A stretch of DNA of 64,000 nt from a virus (lineage: Duplodnaviria > Caudoviricetes): positions 1 to 64,000 of the IMG/VR virus record IMGVR_UViG_3300027751_000004; one strand, 5' to 3'. The notes under the pieces are model-generated. The model made no database searches, was not told the DNA's origin, and saw only the letters and a list, made by a program, of their open reading frames with translations. How positions within the stretch are numbered: the stretch's first letter is position 1; every line of letters starts with the position of its first letter. Of this stretch, positions 1 through 63,601 are shown piece by piece. The position numbers and the translations under genes were made by a program.

Positions 1-58
1 AGTTTCGTCAGCGAACTTAACTTTCATAATATATTCTCTCATCTCAATTTATACAAGT

Positions 59-295: not shown

Positions 296-324
296 AATAT
301 ATTCTCTCATCAATTTATACACGT

Positions 325-7385: not shown

Positions 7386-7582
7386 TATACAGCCTCCAAA
7401 AAACGTGAATCAGTACCATAGTCCATAGCCTGCACGGGGCGATGGTTAACCAGTTCCCAGAAATGTTTGTCTAGGACAGAGAACGATAACAAAGGGGCAA
7501 CCCACTCAGTACCGTCTTCAAACGAAACATAAGTAGGCTCACTTTTCAACGCACTTTCAAGGATATCTAAGCTCATAATCAT
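7385..7582 (-). CDS. early hypothetical protein
   Basis: GAGAG RBS behind an early promoter. Confidence 0.6.
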   Translation of the reverse strand: MIMSLDILESALKSEPTYVSFEDGTEWVAPLLSFSVLDKHFWELVNHRPVQAMDYGTDSRFLEAV

Positions 7583-7607
7583 CTCTCTTTATCAATTCAA
7601 TACAAGT

Positions 7608-7997: not shown

Positions 7998-8028
7998 AAA
8001 ATAGTCTCTCATCTCAATTTATACAGGT

Positions 8029-8057
8029 ATTATACCACCTATTGAGATGAAAGGCAA
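8029..8057 (-). promoter_or_regulatory. early sigma70-type promoter
   Basis: TTGCCT-17bp-TATAAT. Confidence 0.75.
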
Positions 8058-8118
8058 GGTTTTTTATAACTTTTTTTATAATATTTTGTTATATGCTTAG
8101 AACTTTTCAGTATATGGC

Positions 8119-21777: not shown

Positions 21778-23013
21778 TTACTCCCCTTCGGCTGTTCTCT
21801 TAACCTTATGTGCGTCTTTAAAATCCTTTTCGCCTTTAGCACGTGGTTGTTCTACCTCGTCAACCTTTTCTGGCTTCTCATGGGTATAACCAAGTTTCTT
21901 CATACGCTCATGATCTTCTGGCTTTTCTGCTTTGTAGCCTTTACCAGTCTTAGGATCGTACATCATATGAGGCTCGAAATCGCTCTCAGCTAGTGCGTCG
22001 ATTACTGCTAACTCAAACAACTTTGCAGCTTGCTTTATAGAAATAGTCTCGATATCGCCAAACTGATTCTTAGTTCTTACGTTTACTTTACGACCTTTTA
22101 ATCCTAACTCAAGATCATAAAACTTGCCGTCTTTACCACGAACTTTCTTGATTGCAGCTTCATTGATACCTTCATAGTCTTCAACTCGATACTTCTTGCC
22201 TGAAACGATAAACTCGTCATCGCCATTCAATTTAGCAGCAGCAAGTGCTTTGGTGAATGCATTACCCTCGTTCTTGGTCGATTCCATTCTACCCTTAACT
22301 TTAAACATTTTGTAAGATCCATCTTTAACAGCTTTCATCGCTTTTGCATGATATTTTTTGGCAGATCGCTCGTCTTTGAATGTAGCGGGGGATTCTTCTG
22401 GCTTACCCTTTTTGTTATAATATTGAACAGCGTAGTAATCTTCATTTAAATCTTCTTTCAACCTTACAACATATTTACCACTAGCATCTTTGACAACCTT
22501 ACTGCCTTTATGCTTTTTTGCAAGCTGGCTCGCTTTTGCTTTAGAGAACATACCAGCATCATGATAGCCATCATCAGATTCGCCTTTACCTTTTTGATCA
22601 AGGTATTTCTCTTCACAAACAGAATCTTTACCTTGCTCGATAACTTCGTTCTGAGATGCAGCTTCAACTTCTAGAGTTTCATCTTGACCAGTGATGACTC
22701 GGTTTACTGCGTCCGTCAGATCAATATCTTCTTTCTGAGTCTTTTCTGTCTTTTCTTTCTTTACTGCCTTGCTAATAGCTTGGCGACGTTTCTTAAGATA
22801 TTTGTCTGCAGCATCAGTATCACCGTCGTTATCGACATCATCATCTTCTTTGCCGACTGGGTCAAGTTTTGCCTTTGCTTCTTGAACAACTTCTTCTTGT
22901 TCAGCAGCAGGTTCTGGGGAGGGGGTTTCTTCTACAACAACTTCTTCTTTAGGCTCATACATAGTCTTGTAAGCAGAAGCGATTGCTTTGGTTATATCTA
23001 GGTCAGTGGTCAT
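21778..23013 (-). CDS. charged low-complexity protein, probable internal head/scaffold protein
   Basis: Lys/Glu-rich modules separated by (L/I/V)xE sites typical of gp21 protease substrates. Confidence 0.55.
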   Translation of the reverse strand: MTTDLDITKAIASAYKTMYEPKEEVVVEETPSPEPAAEQEEVVQEAKAKLDPVGKEDDDVDNDGDTDAADKYLKKRRQAISKAVKKEKTEKTQKEDIDLTDAVNRVITGQDETLEVEAASQNEVIEQGKDSVCEEKYLDQKGKGESDDGYHDAGMFSKAKASQLAKKHKGSKVVKDASGKYVVRLKEDLNEDYYAVQYYNKKGKPEESPATFKDERSAKKYHAKAMKAVKDGSYKMFKVKGRMESTKNEGNAFTKALAAAKLNGDDEFIVSGKKYRVEDYEGINEAAIKKVRGKDGKFYDLELGLKGRKVNVRTKNQFGDIETISIKQAAKLFELAVIDALAESDFEPHMMYDPKTGKGYKAEKPEDHERMKKLGYTHEKPEKVDEVEQPRAKGEKDFKDAHKVKRTAEGE

Positions 23014-26530: not shown

Positions 26531-27757
26531 TTACTTGTCCCAACCTTTGATGTAATCATTAGAAAAATTAGCATGACTGAATTTCATTCTATTGACCAGT
26601 TTAAGTGCACTGCCGTCATTATCGATAGCAACATAACCCTCTGGAGCAGTTACAATGAATCCGTCTTTTGTTCTTAGTAATGTACCGATACTACTTGCTT
26701 GATCCATCTTTTGGATGATCATTTCTTTAGCATCAATCAATTGGTTCATTAGATCAAAGATAACTTCTAGGTTCTTCGAGTTACCTGTCAAGAAGAACTT
26801 TAAAACATCATCACGCTTATCTGTTTGAACCTTTTTACCTTTTGCTGTCTTACGCTTATCTGCTTCTTTCTCGAAGTGACCATTGATATACCTAATTAGA
26901 TCACGCACATGAGATTTCGTATTCTTAACCTTTTGCCCAGCCCTGACCTTAGTATTGAAATGTACTTTGGTCAATCTAAGCAATTCAGGGTTGTTAGAGA
27001 TAGCATTAAGTGTCTTAGAGTCTATCTTCTTAAATAATTTACCAGCATTAGATATATACTTAGTAACTTCTTTTGTCTCTTTCTCGGTAAATGTAGCTTT
27101 ACCAGAAATATCAGTAAACTCTGGATCAACAAACCAAACGTTCTTAGACTTCTTAAGACCACTTGAAATGCTTTTACCAAATGACGCTTTCATAGTCTCA
27201 AAAGAAGAACCAGAGTACGTTGTATGCCAGACTACACCCATCTTAGATGCCTTGATAGCTTTCGCCATGTCTGAATTAGCTGGTACAGCATATACAATTG
27301 TATTCGGGTGGAAGGTAATAACTTTCTCGCCTTCGTAGGTTTCGCTCTTTAGGTCGCTCTTACTGTATAAGAAGTCTCCCTGAATCACGCCAGTAATGCC
27401 CAACTCTGGTAAATACTTCAGAGCAAGTTTCAATTTATCTGCCAATTCACCGCTAGTATCGGCATCTACTTCCGCATTCGTTTTATAGATTTTTGGATTC
27501 TTGGCAAAAACACCTTTTTTAGCCACGAAGAATTTACCATCTGACGGATCTTGACCAGCAAAGATAGCAGGAGCACCATCCCACTTAACAGTAGTAGACA
27601 CGCCCCGACTAGAACTGCCAGATAACATGTCACGCATAGATCTAAGAACATTAATAGCTTGTCTCGCACCAATAACTCCTCCATTCAAAACAGCATCTTC
27701 AAGATGCTCCATATGTGTATTTTTTTGTTCGGTCAAGAACTTATTAAACGATAGCAT
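26531..27757 (-). CDS. ligase-like nucleotidyltransferase (KxDG) protein
   Basis: TVKWDGAPAI, QGDFLY, PEGYV, LKLVNR mirror ligase motifs I, III, IV, V. Confidence 0.6.
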   Translation of the reverse strand: MLSFNKFLTEQKNTHMEHLEDAVLNGGVIGARQAINVLRSMRDMLSGSSSRGVSTTVKWDGAPAIFAGQDPSDGKFFVAKKGVFAKNPKIYKTNAEVDADTSGELADKLKLALKYLPELGITGVIQGDFLYSKSDLKSETYEGEKVITFHPNTIVYAVPANSDMAKAIKASKMGVVWHTTYSGSSFETMKASFGKSISSGLKKSKNVWFVDPEFTDISGKATFTEKETKEVTKYISNAGKLFKKIDSKTLNAISNNPELLRLTKVHFNTKVRAGQKVKNTKSHVRDLIRYINGHFEKEADKRKTAKGKKVQTDKRDDVLKFFLTGNSKNLEVIFDLMNQLIDAKEMIIQKMDQASSIGTLLRTKDGFIVTAPEGYVAIDNDGSALKLVNRMKFSHANFSNDYIKGWDK

Positions 27758-28992
27758 TACATCCATCCTTTAAAGTTTACAAATTGAGAAACCTTATCTA
27801 AGTCTCTAAAACCGAAATTAGATTTAAACAAAACTGTATCACCGCTTTTAAATGTAACTCCAGTATTCACTTTGCTATCGTCTTTCTCAAACTCAATGTC
27901 GAAGTCTTTCTTCATACTGTCTAAGATCTTATTAAACTCTTTACTCTGGCGACTAGAAAGAACTTTTACATCCTTACCAGCCTTTGACTGTACCGAAAGG
28001 TACAGAGTGTCCGCACCATCAAACCCTAGTAGCTTAATCATGTTTTCGTTTATCTGTGCTTTGTTTTTCTTATATTGTTTTTCAAAAACATCAATCATAA
28101 GGTTACGGACTTCAATATAGACTCCCCTGTCATCTAAGATTTCCTTGGCTGCAGGTCTACCTATTTCGGACTTCAACTTTGCGGGGGAATCTGGACCAGC
28201 CTGAAGATCAGCTATACGCATCATTTGATCTCGTAAGCCATACTTCTTTATAAACTCGTCGACCTTTGCTTTGACTGACTTCTTAGTTTGGAAGCCACCG
28301 ATAGCTGGATCTATAAGGTTAATCACCCAGCTAGTGAAAGTAGAATTAGAAACATTTATGTTCCAATTCTTATATGCTTTCAAAGATGCTTCTATATGGT
28401 CAATCACTTCGTTAGTCTTTTTCTTATATGCGATTAATTCAATATCAGCTTTTGTGATACCTTTACCCGACTCACCTGTAAGTCTAACTTCAAACTCTGT
28501 AAACTCTAAGTCTTCAACGCTGGTCTGTATATCGTTCCATATACTAGCACCCATTGCTGCACCTGACTCTTCCATGCGTTGTGCTTCAGACTTTACTTTA
28601 GAAATATTGGTTCCGAAGTTTAAACCTTTGGCAAGTAGTTTATCTTTTTTGTATTTGTCTTTATGAGATTTGAGTTGTTGTACTGTCATACCACGCATAC
28701 TGCCACCAGCATTAGCGATTAGTAATGCCAATTCATAAGCAGTACAAAACTCTGAATAGTATCCCATTCGGGATTTTAGATCTACCTTATCGGTCTTTGC
28801 TTCGTTTAATGGTTGCCCATCAGTAGCATAATTCAACTTTATTTTAGCAGTTTTACCGAATCCAAGTTTACCAAAGGCTTTTTTTACAGACTTAGAAATA
28901 GTCCGCACAGCTTTCTTGATTTTTTTACTCAGAGATCGCAAGGAATCCACGAGTCCTTCGTTTATCTCTTGATATTCTTTAAATCTCAACAT
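27757..28992 (-). CDS. putative PD-(D/E)XK nuclease, probably virion-internal
   Basis: KADIEL...EASLK; MLRFKEYQEINE N-terminus. Confidence 0.45.
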   Translation of the reverse strand: MLRFKEYQEINEGLVDSLRSLSKKIKKAVRTISKSVKKAFGKLGFGKTAKIKLNYATDGQPLNEAKTDKVDLKSRMGYYSEFCTAYELALLIANAGGSMRGMTVQQLKSHKDKYKKDKLLAKGLNFGTNISKVKSEAQRMEESGAAMGASIWNDIQTSVEDLEFTEFEVRLTGESGKGITKADIELIAYKKKTNEVIDHIEASLKAYKNWNINVSNSTFTSWVINLIDPAIGGFQTKKSVKAKVDEFIKKYGLRDQMMRIADLQAGPDSPAKLKSEIGRPAAKEILDDRGVYIEVRNLMIDVFEKQYKKNKAQINENMIKLLGFDGADTLYLSVQSKAGKDVKVLSSRQSKEFNKILDSMKKDFDIEFEKDDSKVNTGVTFKSGDTVLFKSNFGFRDLDKVSQFVNFKGWM

Positions 28993-29025
28993 TGTGTGTA
29001 TGAATCCTAAAGTAAATTATACATC

Positions 29026-29033
29026 TATTTATA
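29026..29033 (-). promoter_or_regulatory. T4-type late promoter
   Basis: TATAAATA just past the terminator. Confidence 0.7.
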
Positions 29034-29042
29034 ATAAAATAA

Positions 29043-29060
29043 ACCCCCAATTAAGGGGGT
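29043..29060 (-). terminator. intrinsic terminator ending the early cassette
   Basis: ACCCCC-TTAATT-GGGGGT followed by TTATTTT. Confidence 0.75.
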
Positions 29061-29069
29061 CTATAGGGT

Positions 29070-29114
29070 TTGTGGCAAATTATTGAGTGAGAGAGAGAGA
29101 GAGATTTGCCACAA
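29070..29114 (-). ncRNA. candidate regulatory stem-loop with CU-repeat loop
   Basis: Perfect 11-bp inverted repeat TTGTGGCAAAT/ATTTGCCACAA around a 23-nt loop with a (GA)8 tract. Confidence 0.45.
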
Positions 29115-29129
29115 GAGAGAACAATTAGT

Positions 29130-29330
29130 TTAATCAATGAATAGGTGCTTGTATCCTTTCTTCTCGACAGTCCTTACTTTAGGGTTTGGTGCTTTGTAGC
29201 CAGCCAATTCTATTTCACGATTTAAACGAGATACCATATCGAATACTTCAGCAACCTTTTCAATCTCGCTCTTTCTGTAAGAGCCGACATAACTTGAATC
29301 AGATTTTTTCATTTCATGATTTAATTTCAT
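29130..29330 (-). CDS. hypothetical protein
   Basis: Last ORF of the early cassette. Confidence 0.6.
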   Translation of the reverse strand: MKLNHEMKKSDSSYVGSYRKSEIEKVAEVFDMVSRLNREIELAGYKAPNPKVRTVEKKGYKHLFID

Positions 29331-29569
29331 TACACTATATCCTGTATTCTATTTCCTTCATCATTAGTTCCTGGGATTATATGGACAGAGCCATCTTCCA
29401 TCTCTATCAATTCTACAACTCCAGACTTGTGTAACTGTTGTAATATAGTTTGTACCGATACTTCGATACCATTCTTCATCCCTTGACTATACGCTTGAGT
29501 TTGATAGCGATGCATACTTACTATGAAAAAAGCAAACAGTATAAATAACATCCAATATTCTAAAAACAT
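29330..29569 (-). CDS. small membrane protein
   Basis: N-terminal TM. Confidence 0.6.
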   Translation of the reverse strand: MFLEYWMLFILFAFFIVSMHRYQTQAYSQGMKNGIEVSVQTILQQLHKSGVVELIEMEDGSVHIIPGTNDEGNRIQDIV

Positions 29570-29985
29570 AATTCTAATTCCACAATACAATCTTCAGCAA
29601 GTTTACTTTCCATATCATATGCCTCACGTTCCCAAGGGCAATCTTCATACTTCGATTTACTATAATCTTTTTCTTTCCAAAGGATCTTACCATCAACACA
29701 GCGAAGTTCCCTACGAGCATATTGCTTAACATGTATCATTTCATGACAGATCGTAGCAACTAGATCCTCAACTGGGAGAGATTTACTGATACTCAGCTCA
29801 AATTCAGAGTTTGTATCACCTTCAAGACAGTACCCGAACGCTTTTTCTAATTCTTCGAAGTTCAGCGTAATTTCTAGAGTACTATGGCGTGGGAGCAGTT
29901 TAAAGACGCACCAGCTAATAATCCTATCAGCAAGTTCTCGCTCTACCTTTCTTCCGCCATTTACCTCGATATAGTTCATCAGCAA
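29560..29985 (-). CDS. zincin-like metallopeptidase
   Basis: CHEMIHVKQY (HExxH), PWEREA. Confidence 0.8.
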   Translation of the reverse strand: MLMNYIEVNGGRKVERELADRIISWCVFKLLPRHSTLEITLNFEELEKAFGYCLEGDTNSEFELSISKSLPVEDLVATICHEMIHVKQYARRELRCVDGKILWKEKDYSKSKYEDCPWEREAYDMESKLAEDCIVELELCF

Positions 29986-30048
29986 ATCTCCCCCAGAGAA
30001 TTAATACATATATTATATATTAAAATTCAAAGAAAAACAACAACTATT

Positions 30049-30180
30049 TTACTTAATTCCCGCAATAATTCCAGCAACAAAATCTGTTGTGGTATTAGTT
30101 TTTATAGAGATATCTATGATGCTGTATCCAGCATTATACAATTCCTGTATCTCAAGGATAACATTACCAATTTTAGACAT
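30049..30180 (-). CDS. small HTH-like protein
   Basis: IQELYNAGYSIIDIS pattern. Confidence 0.45.
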   Translation of the reverse strand: MSKIGNVILEIQELYNAGYSIIDISIKTNTTTDFVAGIIAGIK

Positions 30181-30556
30181 ATATACCCCATTCAGCAAAT
30201 AATTCTTCAGTATCTTCAGGTTTAGAAGTGGTAAAATCATTACCAGTCTTCGGCGAAACAAACTTGAGTTGACTCAAAAGGTAGTCTTTAGACCAACCAT
30301 CATCTAGATTGATACGTTGTTCGTCAACCCAATCTTCAAGAGGTCGAACGCCTACAGGATACTCCTTGTAGTATAGGTCGTTCGAACCAAACGCAGCCAT
30401 AACAAAAGCCAGAGCATCAGCCTCACGACCGAGGTCTTCGACGAGATAATCACTACCACCTTTCATCTTCCAGCTATTTGTACCGCTTTTGAAAGAACCC
30501 TCTTCAGCGTGAGAGCCATAATTCTCGATAAGCTGGGTAGAAACAATATACTTCAT
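30173..30556 (-). CDS. early hypothetical protein
   Basis: TQLIENYG...WKMKGGSDY; behind an early promoter. Confidence 0.7.
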   Translation of the reverse strand: MKYIVSTQLIENYGSHAEEGSFKSGTNSWKMKGGSDYLVEDLGREADALAFVMAAFGSNDLYYKEYPVGVRPLEDWVDEQRINLDDGWSKDYLLSQLKFVSPKTGNDFTTSKPEDTEELFAEWGIYV

Positions 30557-30584
30557 AATCTATTCTCTATCAATTAATACACTT

Positions 30585-30613
30585 ATTATACTATAATCAG
30601 ACCTAAAAGTAAA
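30585..30613 (-). promoter_or_regulatory. early sigma70-type promoter
   Basis: TTTACT-17bp-TATAAT. Confidence 0.8.
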
Positions 30614-30626
30614 GCCTTTTTTTGAA

Positions 30627-30986
30627 TTAAGCCACAACTTTGTATGGCGTATCCCACTCACCAAAATTGATATCAGTATAATGACTTCTATTAAAGTAAT
30701 CAGTCATAGCATCATCTTCATTGAAGTAATCTGGACCCTTCATCGCAGCAAGAAGTTCAGAGATAAACGATACCAACTTGGGGTTGTTAGCATAGTGATC
30801 CTGATACCAATGCTCATTTACTTGATAATGACTCGTGGGATCAAACTTAACTTCACCCTCTTTCAGTTTAACAACAAGAGTCATATGATGTCTAACAGAA
30901 ATAGAACCCTTAACTTTGTACTTCTTAAGGACTTCTTTAATAGCAGGAGCAAGTTTCTTTTTATCTTCTTGGGATACATAAGCCAT
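30627..30986 (-). CDS. early hypothetical protein
   Basis: MAYVSQE...DDAMTDYF; GAGAGAG RBS. Confidence 0.7.
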   Translation of the reverse strand: MAYVSQEDKKKLAPAIKEVLKKYKVKGSISVRHHMTLVVKLKEGEVKFDPTSHYQVNEHWYQDHYANNPKLVSFISELLAAMKGPDYFNEDDAMTDYFNRSHYTDINFGEWDTPYKVVA

Positions 30987-31005
30987 AATAATATTCTCTC
31001 TCAGA

Positions 31006-31299
31006 TTAAGCAGATTTGTTTACATAGGTATTGTGGTTTTTAATGAACCATCTTTCCACAACAGGATAACCATCAGCATCTTCATCAGTGATGACATAGG
31101 CAACAGTCTTCAATACACGAGCATATCTCCAACTGTTTTCAGCCACCCATACTTTATGGGGATAGTTCTTACTTGAAACGAAATGCTCAGGTTCATCATT
31201 CACAGAAAACTCAAAAAGGTTTTCATAATCTTTCTCGACGAAAGAACCAACGATAGTAGCATCATATTCGAAGTAAGTTTTAGTCGGGGCAAAAGCCAT
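31006..31299 (-). CDS. early hypothetical protein
   Basis: First gene behind an early promoter. Confidence 0.7.
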   Translation of the reverse strand: MAFAPTKTYFEYDATIVGSFVEKDYENLFEFSVNDEPEHFVSSKNYPHKVWVAENSWRYARVLKTVAYVITDEDADGYPVVERWFIKNHNTYVNKSA

Positions 31300-31331
31300 A
31301 TTTCAACACTCTCTCAATTAATTACAAGAGT

Positions 31332-31360
31332 ATTATAACCCGATTCTAAACAAAAAGCAA
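31332..31360 (-). promoter_or_regulatory. early sigma70-type promoter
   Basis: TTGCTT-17bp-TATAAT. Confidence 0.75.
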
Positions 31361-31412
31361 CCTTTTTATTGAATTATTTTAACTTTTTTTATATCGATTT
31401 GTTATATGCTTA

Positions 31413-47560: not shown

Positions 47561-47977
47561 TTACTTTACACCTATGTTGTACTTTGGACAAAGTTCCCAG
47601 TCGTGTTTTTCTTTATGAGAGATAATCTTAATCTGCCTTAATGGTGCTTTATTTTCTGCTTGTTCTTCTTCAACAAGATCTAATAAACCCCAGTCAGACA
47701 ACAAAGTCGCAATGGTGTTTCTCCTTTCTACGTCATTCTCCATAAGGTTACTCGGTTTACCATCCAACATAAAGAGTTCTTTAAAATGAATGATAAAGTA
47801 TCTACCTTGCTTGTGTAATATATGACAAGACTGATACAGTTTGTTATCCTTACGAGAAGCCACACCCATTCTCGTCAACGTTTCACGAACTTTTAAAAAG
47901 TCGTCAGGATGGCTTAATCGTACTTCCAGCATTGAAGCTGGAGTCCACTCAATTGGTTTTTGATCTTCTAGTTCCAC
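47561..47977 (-). CDS. regA: translational repressor RegA
   Basis: DDFLKVRETLTRMG, LYQSCHILHKQGRY, HFKELF. Confidence 0.95.
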   Translation of the reverse strand: MELEDQKPIEWTPASMLEVRLSHPDDFLKVRETLTRMGVASRKDNKLYQSCHILHKQGRYFIIHFKELFMLDGKPSNLMENDVERRNTIATLLSDWGLLDLVEEEQAENKAPLRQIKIISHKEKHDWELCPKYNIGVK

Positions 47978-61344: not shown

Positions 61345-61386
61345 AATATAATCTCTCTCTAATCAATTAACTCATTCAATACACAT

Positions 61387-63522: not shown

Positions 63523-63549
63523 ATAGAATACCTCTCAATCAATACATGT

Positions 63550-63578
63550 ATTATACTATAAGTAATTGAGAAAGTAAA
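63550..63578 (-). promoter_or_regulatory. early sigma70-type promoter
   Basis: TTTACT-17bp-TATAAT. Confidence 0.8.
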
Positions 63579-63601
63579 GGGTTTTTTTGAATTATTTTAA
63601 A

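Follow-up and report, generated by a model that had tools for sequence, protein, structure and literature searches.

What might be the role of a perfect stem with a repetitive pyrimidine loop that lies between the last gene of an early phage cassette and the terminator of that cassette? The locus is part of a 64-kb stretch of DNA (hereafter the window, i.e. the whole stretch analysed), which is the first part of a 120-kb IMG/VR viral contig that is approximately 66% complete. An earlier note on this DNA had described a perfect 11-bp stem on the minus strand, in a 3' UTR before a terminator, and this description was confirmed at 29114-29070. The note had further proposed that the loop of this hairpin is complementary to the early-gene leaders of the phage, and that a small RNA derived from the 3' UTR could act on the early regulon.

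The sequence identifies the source as a marine T4-like phage. The DNA polymerase of the contig is approximately 50% identical to the polymerases of cyanomyoviruses and of phage C48C1, and the window carries several T4-type signals, including TTTACT-N17-TATAAT early promoters, TATAAATA late promoters and a gene for the translational repressor RegA (minus strand, 47570-47932; Pfam PF01818, E 3e-46). The runs containing this phage are marine metagenomes. The Pfam model for RegB found no match in the phage contig, but it found none in the controls either. In megablast and blastn searches of the hairpin region against GenBank phages, no match was obtained.

Results

The hairpin and its surroundings

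All features described in this section are encoded on the minus strand. The 11-nt 5' arm (29104..29114), which is matched by the covariance model R1 described below, forms a perfect inverted repeat with the 3' arm (29070..29080), and the resulting 11 bp close a 23-nt loop (29081..29103) consisting of (CU)7 followed by ACUCAAUA, an anti-leader and anti-Shine-Dalgarno-like sequence. Nowhere else in the 120-kb contig does a (CT) run exceed four units. A second CU tract, UUCUCUC (29115..29121), is single-stranded, lies just 5' of the stem and is invariant in L122-L127 (L numbers denote loci of related phages). An intrinsic terminator (29036..29064), composed of a G/C stem with a 6-nt loop (29064-29039) and a U-run, starts 5 nt past the stem and closes the early cassette, so that the window copy has the defined 3' end by which members of the family are recognised. 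Together, hairpin and terminator fold at -28.7 kcal/mol (z = -6.8), and none of the shuffled sequences was as good (0/200).

The hairpin is located in the 3' UTR of a 66-aa ORF (29130..29330), the last in the cassette, which has homologues in close relatives only and whose TAA is 15 nt from the hairpin. Because this stop codon is so close upstream, the window hairpin has no promoter of its own, and no sigma70 promoter (TTGAC-N17-TAnnnT) was seen before it. The early promoter, TTTACT-N17-TATAAT, and the leader of the cassette that ends with the hairpin are found at 30557..30620. On the same strand, 446 nt upstream of the hairpin, a gene of 139 aa (29560..29979) encodes an HExxH metallopeptidase-like, SprT-like protein, as judged from a match to Pfam SprT-like/DUF6782 below the cut-off, from an alignment and from synteny. 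The promoters of the next gene (29016..29044), a sigma70-like GTTTAT-N17-TATAAT and a T4-type late TATAAATA (29033-29026), are 100% conserved in relatives, and the ATG of this gene is at 28992. Three 411-aa ORFs are present on this strand (21778-23013, 26531-27766 and 27757-28992); the second matches DUF6267/phrog_455, and the third, with the late promoter in front, is located immediately past the hairpin module.

A contig from an RNA library spans 29077-31399 and includes the loop. This is coverage only, possibly from DNA carry-over, and since RNA-library contigs cannot show ends or abundance, it indicates that the region is covered and nothing further. The ends of the RNA-library contigs, at 29077 and 29000, flank the terminator and promoter, which is a weak hint of transcript boundaries. 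A role of the stem as a repeated operator was rejected, as its half-sites occur elsewhere in the window at no more than chance frequency; antiterminator pairing between hairpin and terminator was also rejected, as no G-run is available for the C-run of the terminator.

A family of hairpins with free stems and a conserved loop

Loci of related phages were searched with two conserved genes of the neighbourhood as anchors, one for DUF6267 and one for the SprT-like HExxH protein. An unbiased script for intergenic hairpins with long loops returned many wholly different stems that share one loop core, ACCUCUCUCUC. The covariance model R1 was seeded on six alignable members; the unrelated stems could not be aligned using MAFFT. 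In the SprT-centred loci, 26 sense-strand matches to R1 were found, including the window copy and those of close relatives, and the 607 kb of DUF6267-centred loci gave 0 matches. The window hairpin scored 20.6 bits, with an E of 0.011 in 467 kb and 0.003 in its own contig. R1 has exactly one match in the 120-kb contig and likewise one in Melnitz, a cultured Methylophilales phage whose genome is complete, and approximately 50 copies were found in IMG/VR contigs. R1 found no match in HTVC008M, S-SM2 or P-SSM2, and its marginal matches in C48C1 were rejected, as these represent the antisense strand of a leader.

The family takes the form of a 9-16 bp stem of free sequence and a pyrimidine loop of 20-30 nt, in which the core is usually followed by CAACUCUCUC or a variant. 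The loop core demanded of R1 family members, (A)CCUCUCUCUC, is present in the window copy, where the loop opens with CUCUCUC and without ACC; the near-identical strain L005 has UCCCUCUC.

Covariation of the stem in related phages, which the earlier note had named as a check, was clearly observed. In the alignment fitted with R1, double-sided, compensatory changes occur at 13 of 13 stem pairs and 95.9% of the cells are paired; the covariation score is 0.635, compared with 0.18 for shuffled alignments (0/500 reach it) and at most 0.12 with slid partners. Since this alignment was fitted to the structure, a second set was ascertained by the loop motif alone (30 contigs), and in this set 25 of the 30 have full stems, 96% of the cells are paired and G-U pairs are frequent. 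L132 and L263 differ by two compensatory pairs. The plus-strand scores of R1 are far above its minus-strand scores, and the G-U pairs, the low antisense scores and the orientation of the flanking signals together indicate that the structure resides in the sense-strand RNA.

In a search of Rfam 15 with 27-32 kb of the window, the best match was Phe_leader, with 29.5 bits against a threshold of 55, and among 18 loci of relatives, tRNAs alone passed the gathering threshold. No description of the CU-loop element was found in Rfam 15 or in the literature searched. The hairpin very probably belongs to a conserved structured RNA family of marine T4-like phages (Kyanoviridae-type, Melnitz-like and relatives), which is apparently previously undescribed.

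Some hairpins at the margin of this family deserve mention. The CU hairpin of L131 was excluded, as it is inside an ORF. In a more distant T4-like contig (L161/L162, 2314-2357), a terminator follows a hairpin of the 3' UTR whose GGGAGGAGGU stem has 10 bp and whose CU-rich loop has 24 nt; this hairpin has no R1 match and its leader match is not significant, and it was left out of the family, of which it may be an analogue or a divergent member. In the family members L248, L275 and L287 (approximately 2310-2470), the 3' part of the loop, UCAUCAUAA, can pair with UUAUGAUGA approximately 30 nt downstream, in a possible pseudoknot or alternative hairpin, and a terminator of the promoter-early stem-loop (PeSL) type with TTGACA in its loop comes next.

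Variation among close relatives

The same module is present in two IMG/VR contigs (99% protein identity) and in six Tara/Logan contigs (approximately 87% nucleotide identity). In close relatives, the stem arms (the 5' arm in L005 and L122-L127), the loop tail CUCACUCAAUA and the upstream CU tract are invariant. In the relatives with approximately 87% identity, 44 of the 45 hairpin positions are identical, compared with 74-93% in the flanks and 73% in the terminator, where one compensatory change, C-G to G-C, was observed. While stem and tail are fixed, (CU)n ranges from 4 to 7, with an extra CUCA unit in some copies, and an RNA-library contig and a DNA contig differ by one and two units. Marine strains that occur together (L005, L122-L127, runs X15 and X9) thus vary in the length of this microsatellite.

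Scanning of 117 loci with the shared promoter-leader motif revealed no further (CT)n hairpin. This motif, TATAATA-NN-TGTAT-WR-ATTGA, was also observed in T5-sized contigs (L025, IMG/VR, 121,750 bp, and others), and it is thus not clade-specific. Purine-rich initial transcribed regions of the AUUGAGAG type seem to be common to strong early promoters of unrelated phages.

Gene-like architecture and synteny

In most relatives, the element is a stand-alone unit consisting of a sigma70 promoter, the hairpin and then either a terminator or tRNA-Gly. The sigma70-type promoter ends 6-10 nt before the stem, with constant spacing, at 11 or more loci; in Melnitz, 8 nt separate the end of TTGACT-N17-TATGAT from the stem, and downstream of the element come a G/C hairpin and its U-run. 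In at least 15 loci, tRNA-Gly(UCC) starts 6-13 nt past the stem, and as this tRNA is directly downstream, cleavage by RNase P would release the hairpin as a 5' leader. A promoter of its own together with a terminator or tRNA strongly implies a discrete small RNA in these relatives. The earlier note's idea of a small RNA is thus supported in the relatives; in the window, where no promoter precedes the hairpin, a discrete RNA is hypothetical. The order of stop codon, hairpin and terminator, i.e. the 3'-UTR form, is found in the window and in L132, L263, L192, L275, L287, L248 and L272. A 5'-UTR form is found in L226 and in L270/278/286, where the loop pairs in cis with the next start region over 8/8 and 12/12 positions.

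The position of the element relative to protein genes is also conserved. Among the 30 loop-motif contigs, all 26 that were testable (26/26) have the SprT-like gene 100-550 nt downstream on the same strand; the order is reversed in the window lineage, L132, L263 and L192, where this gene comes first and the hairpin shortly after. The hairpin adjoins the HExxH (SprT-like) gene in all lineages. At several loci (L312, L313, L315, L323, L325, L326, L338 and Melnitz 35.3-39.7 kb), the surroundings are a translation neighbourhood with tRNA-Arg(UCU), tRNA-Thr, tRNA-Gly and ribosomal protein S21, in the order tRNAs/S21, GH108 lysozyme-like gene, CU-loop RNA and SprT-like gene. In the Melnitz genome (MZ577097.1, 38547-38726; L289, 3239-3418), the 59-aa CDS MelnitzEXVC044M_66 starts within the hairpin and crosses the terminator and the next promoter. 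The CU-loop element thus exposes this CDS, and with it at least one annotation of a published genome, as probably spurious.

Complementarity between the loop and the early leaders

Every leader listed in the earlier note was found on the minus strand, behind TTTACT-N17-TATAAT early promoters, and nine early promoters carry a leader of the type UGUAU-AAUUGA-GAGAG. The best predicted pairing with the loop, -21.0 kcal/mol, is that of the leader at 61345..61386, followed in this account by the AUUGAGAUGAGAGA-type leader at 7998..8028 (-17.1 kcal/mol), which also has a cis anti-leader arm over its own promoter. Others are the leaders at 7577..7607 (AAGAGAGA type), 63523..63549 (AUUGAUUGAGAGG), 296..324 (AUUGAUGAGAGA), 28..58 (AUUGAGAUGAGAGA, with a gene that runs off the contig start) and 31300..31331 (AUUGAGAGAGUG), and an intercistronic start region with UGAGAGAGA is located at 30987..31005. 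The leader of the cassette that ends with the hairpin has drifted in the window and pairs weakly with the loop (-9.3 kcal/mol), whereas its counterpart in L122-L126 contains AUUGAGAGAGAGA and pairs at -19.1 kcal/mol. The leader of the SprT-like gene in the window also pairs weakly (-12.6 kcal/mol). Between GAGAGA and AUG, the early leaders have an A/U-rich stretch that is similar to published RegA operators.

Against shuffled controls, the match between loop and leaders is significant. The summed RNAduplex energy of the loop with the nine leaders of the family is -134.6 kcal/mol, which 0 of 500 mononucleotide shuffles reach. When (CU)7 is retained and the 9-nt tail is shuffled, 34 of 500 reach this value (p approximately 0.07), indicating that most of the signal is CU against GA. 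Of the two complementarities that the earlier note had claimed, the one to GAGAGA thus carries most of the signal, and the one to the upstream AUUGAG adds only weakly. Compared with approximately 8000 intergenic 23-mers from both strands, leaders excluded, the windows of the loop rank 1st against the leaders (z approximately -5), and no other non-self sequence of the 120-kb contig complements the nine-leader family as well. As CU-rich loops match any purine-rich RBS, this complementarity is partly compositional. The RNAcofold runs of the 3' UTR with the leaders, which either opened the stem or used the CU tract at 29115-29121 for intermolecular pairing, were not counted as evidence, since this program cannot represent kissing between a loop and a leader.

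At two early promoters, 7998-8118 and 63523-63601 on the minus strand, promoter-spanning hairpins were observed, in which a 5' arm over the -35 box and spacer complements the downstream leader and RBS. In read-through RNA, these hairpins would mask the start region, and in promoter-initiated RNA, they would not; this arrangement is of the T4 e/soc/I-TevI type.

Candidate targets across the family

The leaders of SprT-like genes commonly read UUUGAGA-AA-AGAGGU, and the first two-thirds of the loop, counted from its 5' side, are nearly the reverse complement of this sequence. The SprT start region is 1st or 2nd among the start regions of its own locus at 15 of 26 loci, and its mean fractional rank over the 26 loci is 0.31 (p 0.00025, an optimistic value because the loci are phylogenetically related). 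The leaders of the operons containing the element pair with the loop at -19.1 kcal/mol in L123, -17.8 in L132 and -16.9 in L192 (shuffle p at most 0.002), the last through a different, lineage-specific 9-nt match. Cognate pairs of loop and SprT leader were not better than non-cognate pairs (permutation p 0.075). Scans of the start regions and of the whole genome of Melnitz revealed no outstanding loop target, and counts of GAGAG before ATG in five isolates were not above the control, Melnitz having no GAGAG regulon.

With respect to the early regulon as the target, the significant complementarity in the window phage and in relatives therefore speaks in favour of the earlier note, but the co-variation result and the lack of a GAGAG regulon in Melnitz do not. 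Across the family, we infer the best candidate target to be the leader of the SprT-like gene next to the element rather than the early regulon.

Discussion

The loop is what has been conserved in this family, suggesting that it is the working part. Herein, we propose that the RNA acts through this loop, which would serve as an extended anti-Shine-Dalgarno-like sequence and pair with purine-rich leaders of the type UUGAGA...AGAGG(U). The predicted targets include the nine early leaders of the window phage and, for most lineages, the leader of the SprT-like gene beside the element. Such pairing would mask the RBS, and translation would be tuned or shut down as the stable RNA accumulates. In L270 and L226, the loop would pair in cis with the start region directly downstream, and the window and a few other lineages carry the element at the end of an early cassette, in the 3' UTR immediately ahead of the terminator. 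In our judgement, the explanation as a whole, a conserved RNA whose loop pairs with leaders and masks their RBS, stands at about an even chance of being correct, and the antisense tuning of translation, taken as a mechanism, is tentative and falls at or slightly below that level. A point against the antisense reading is that RegA is already present as a protein repressor of early start regions. A bolder version, which we consider unlikely, is that a dedicated RNA mimics and extends the anti-Shine-Dalgarno tail of 16S rRNA and competes with ribosomes for UUGAGA...AGAGG messages, and might, on accumulating, be a timer that closes early translation or might reprogramme initiation together with S21 and the tRNA cluster. 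If true, no trans-acting regulatory RNA family would have been described for T4-type phages before this one.

The main rival to antisense pairing is that the loop binds a protein or mimics another molecule and is not an antisense seed. In the mimic or decoy version, the RNA would titrate a factor that reads the 16S tail or pyrimidine-rich single strands, and candidate partners are ribosomal protein S1 or S21, a cold-shock protein, a host nuclease and the neighbouring SprT-like protein. The conserved CACCUCUCUC resembles the 3' tail of 16S rRNA, CACCUCCUUUCU. Several observations would fit well: the conservation of the loop is far stricter than that of any one candidate target, cognate co-variation with the leaders is absent, Melnitz has no clear target, the element is strictly linked to one protein gene, and phage S21 and tRNA genes are within a few kb at many loci. 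However, the partners named so far are only candidates, S21 was not found in the window's own contig (66% complete), and protein binding leaves the 12/12 cis pairings and the significant leader complementarity unexplained. We therefore assign to this rival a small, although appreciable, probability.

It is distinctly improbable that the hairpin is merely a structural or processing element, e.g. a stabiliser of the 3' end, a helper of the tRNA-Gly precursor or PeSL punctuation for cassette shuffling, with a loop that has no function in trans. Such a barrier hairpin needs neither a loop of 20-30 nt nor a conserved one, and in this family the stems vary and the loop is kept. Its position next to terminators and promoters in a hyperplastic early region does recall PeSLs (PMC2839356), and the element is a tRNA 5' leader at many loci and has a (CU)n of polymorphic length among strains. 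Nevertheless, PeSL stem-loops are short G/C hairpins without a conserved loop, the CU-loop element occurs once per genome and not once per cassette, and the true terminator is separate and follows the hairpin.

That the inverted repeat with its (GA)n.(CT)n spacer works at the DNA level, whether by forming a cruciform or triplex, as a hot spot of recombination, as an origin or as the target of an endonuclease, has a very low probability. Although the spacer is a mirror repeat, its length is polymorphic and a putative homing endonuclease is encoded near the element in Melnitz, G-U is frequent in the stems and even the commonest pair in one column, which on the other strand means A-C mismatches; furthermore, R1 scores the sense strand far higher, and the promoter, the U-run of the terminator and the tRNA are all oriented with the element. 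Finally, a chance match or fossil without function, arising either through slippage of a microsatellite or as an early-leader relic inverted by cassette recombination, might be suspected from the resemblance of the loop's plus strand to a leader and from a (CT)n of 4 to 7 units, with an extra CTCA unit in some, between near-identical strains, but compensatory stems across the family, fixed synteny and a promoter and terminator of its own in relatives exclude a neutral relic, and this reading is effectively refuted.

According to a 2010 review of post-transcriptional control in T4, no trans-acting small regulatory RNA of this phage had been functionally characterised, and the genomes of relatives may offer candidates (PMC3014915). 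The CU-loop element is such a candidate, with strong comparative support for its structure, a clear gene-like architecture in relatives and a constant partner among the protein genes. The CU-loop RNA is also testable, since one phage that carries it, Melnitz, can be cultured on its OM43 host H5P1. Moreover, one RNA module is put to three uses, for it stands alone as a gene in some phages, forms the leader of a tRNA in others and is part of a 3' or 5' UTR in others still, and this module is a useful case for the origin of regulators embedded in UTRs.

Comparison with known systems

The RsaE/RoxS-type sRNAs use C/U-rich loops to base-pair with and mask Shine-Dalgarno sequences. The likeness is that of a small RNA made of hairpin and terminator, whose exposed pyrimidine loop complements the RBSs of several mRNAs; in contrast, the CU-loop RNA is phage-encoded and unrelated in sequence, has a CU repeat and not a C-run, and its targets are predicted. 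Ruiz de los Mozos and colleagues reportedly described, in 2013, an anti-SD element in the 3' UTR of S. aureus icaR. There, as in L132, L263, L192 and the L123 type, a pyrimidine motif in the 3' UTR complements the SD region in the 5' leader of the same mRNA; the differences are that the CU motif is shown in a conserved hairpin loop and is elsewhere an independent gene, and that the leader of the window's own cassette matches weakly. The c4 antisense RNA of P1/P7 (Rfam C4) also has loops that pair with the RBS region of a phage mRNA. Like the CU-loop RNA, c4 is a small phage RNA that is co-transcribed with or adjacent to its target, but fold, sequence and phage group differ, and the Rfam scan of the CU-loop loci gave no match.

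Within the T4-type phages, rnaC and rnaD (species 1 and 2) of T4 are stable RNAs in the tRNA cluster that are co-transcribed with tRNAs and whose function is unknown (PMC3014915). These are likewise small, stable and tRNA-linked; their folds look unrelated, as rnaC and rnaD are 119-139 nt long, multi-helix and tRNA-like, without a CU loop. PeSLs are promoter-early stem-loop cassettes of T4-type phages (PMC2839356, PMC4122927), defined as short G/C stem-loops that overlap a sigma70 early promoter or are fused to it and that occur many times per genome in hyperplastic regions. The window's terminator and promoter at 29064-29016 fit this description, and the region is a hyperplastic early one. 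The CU-loop hairpin itself was rejected as a PeSL, being a single copy upstream of the PeSL terminator, with A/U in its stem, a long conserved loop and no internal promoter. Finally, T4 masks early start regions by means of RegA and of cis hairpins at e, soc, 49 and I-TevI (PMC3014915). The proposed outcome, masked early start regions, is the same, and the window has both RegA and hairpins of the e/soc type at approximately 8070 and 63580; however, these known devices are a protein or act strictly in cis, whereas the CU-loop RNA would act in trans, or else from the opposite end of the mRNA.
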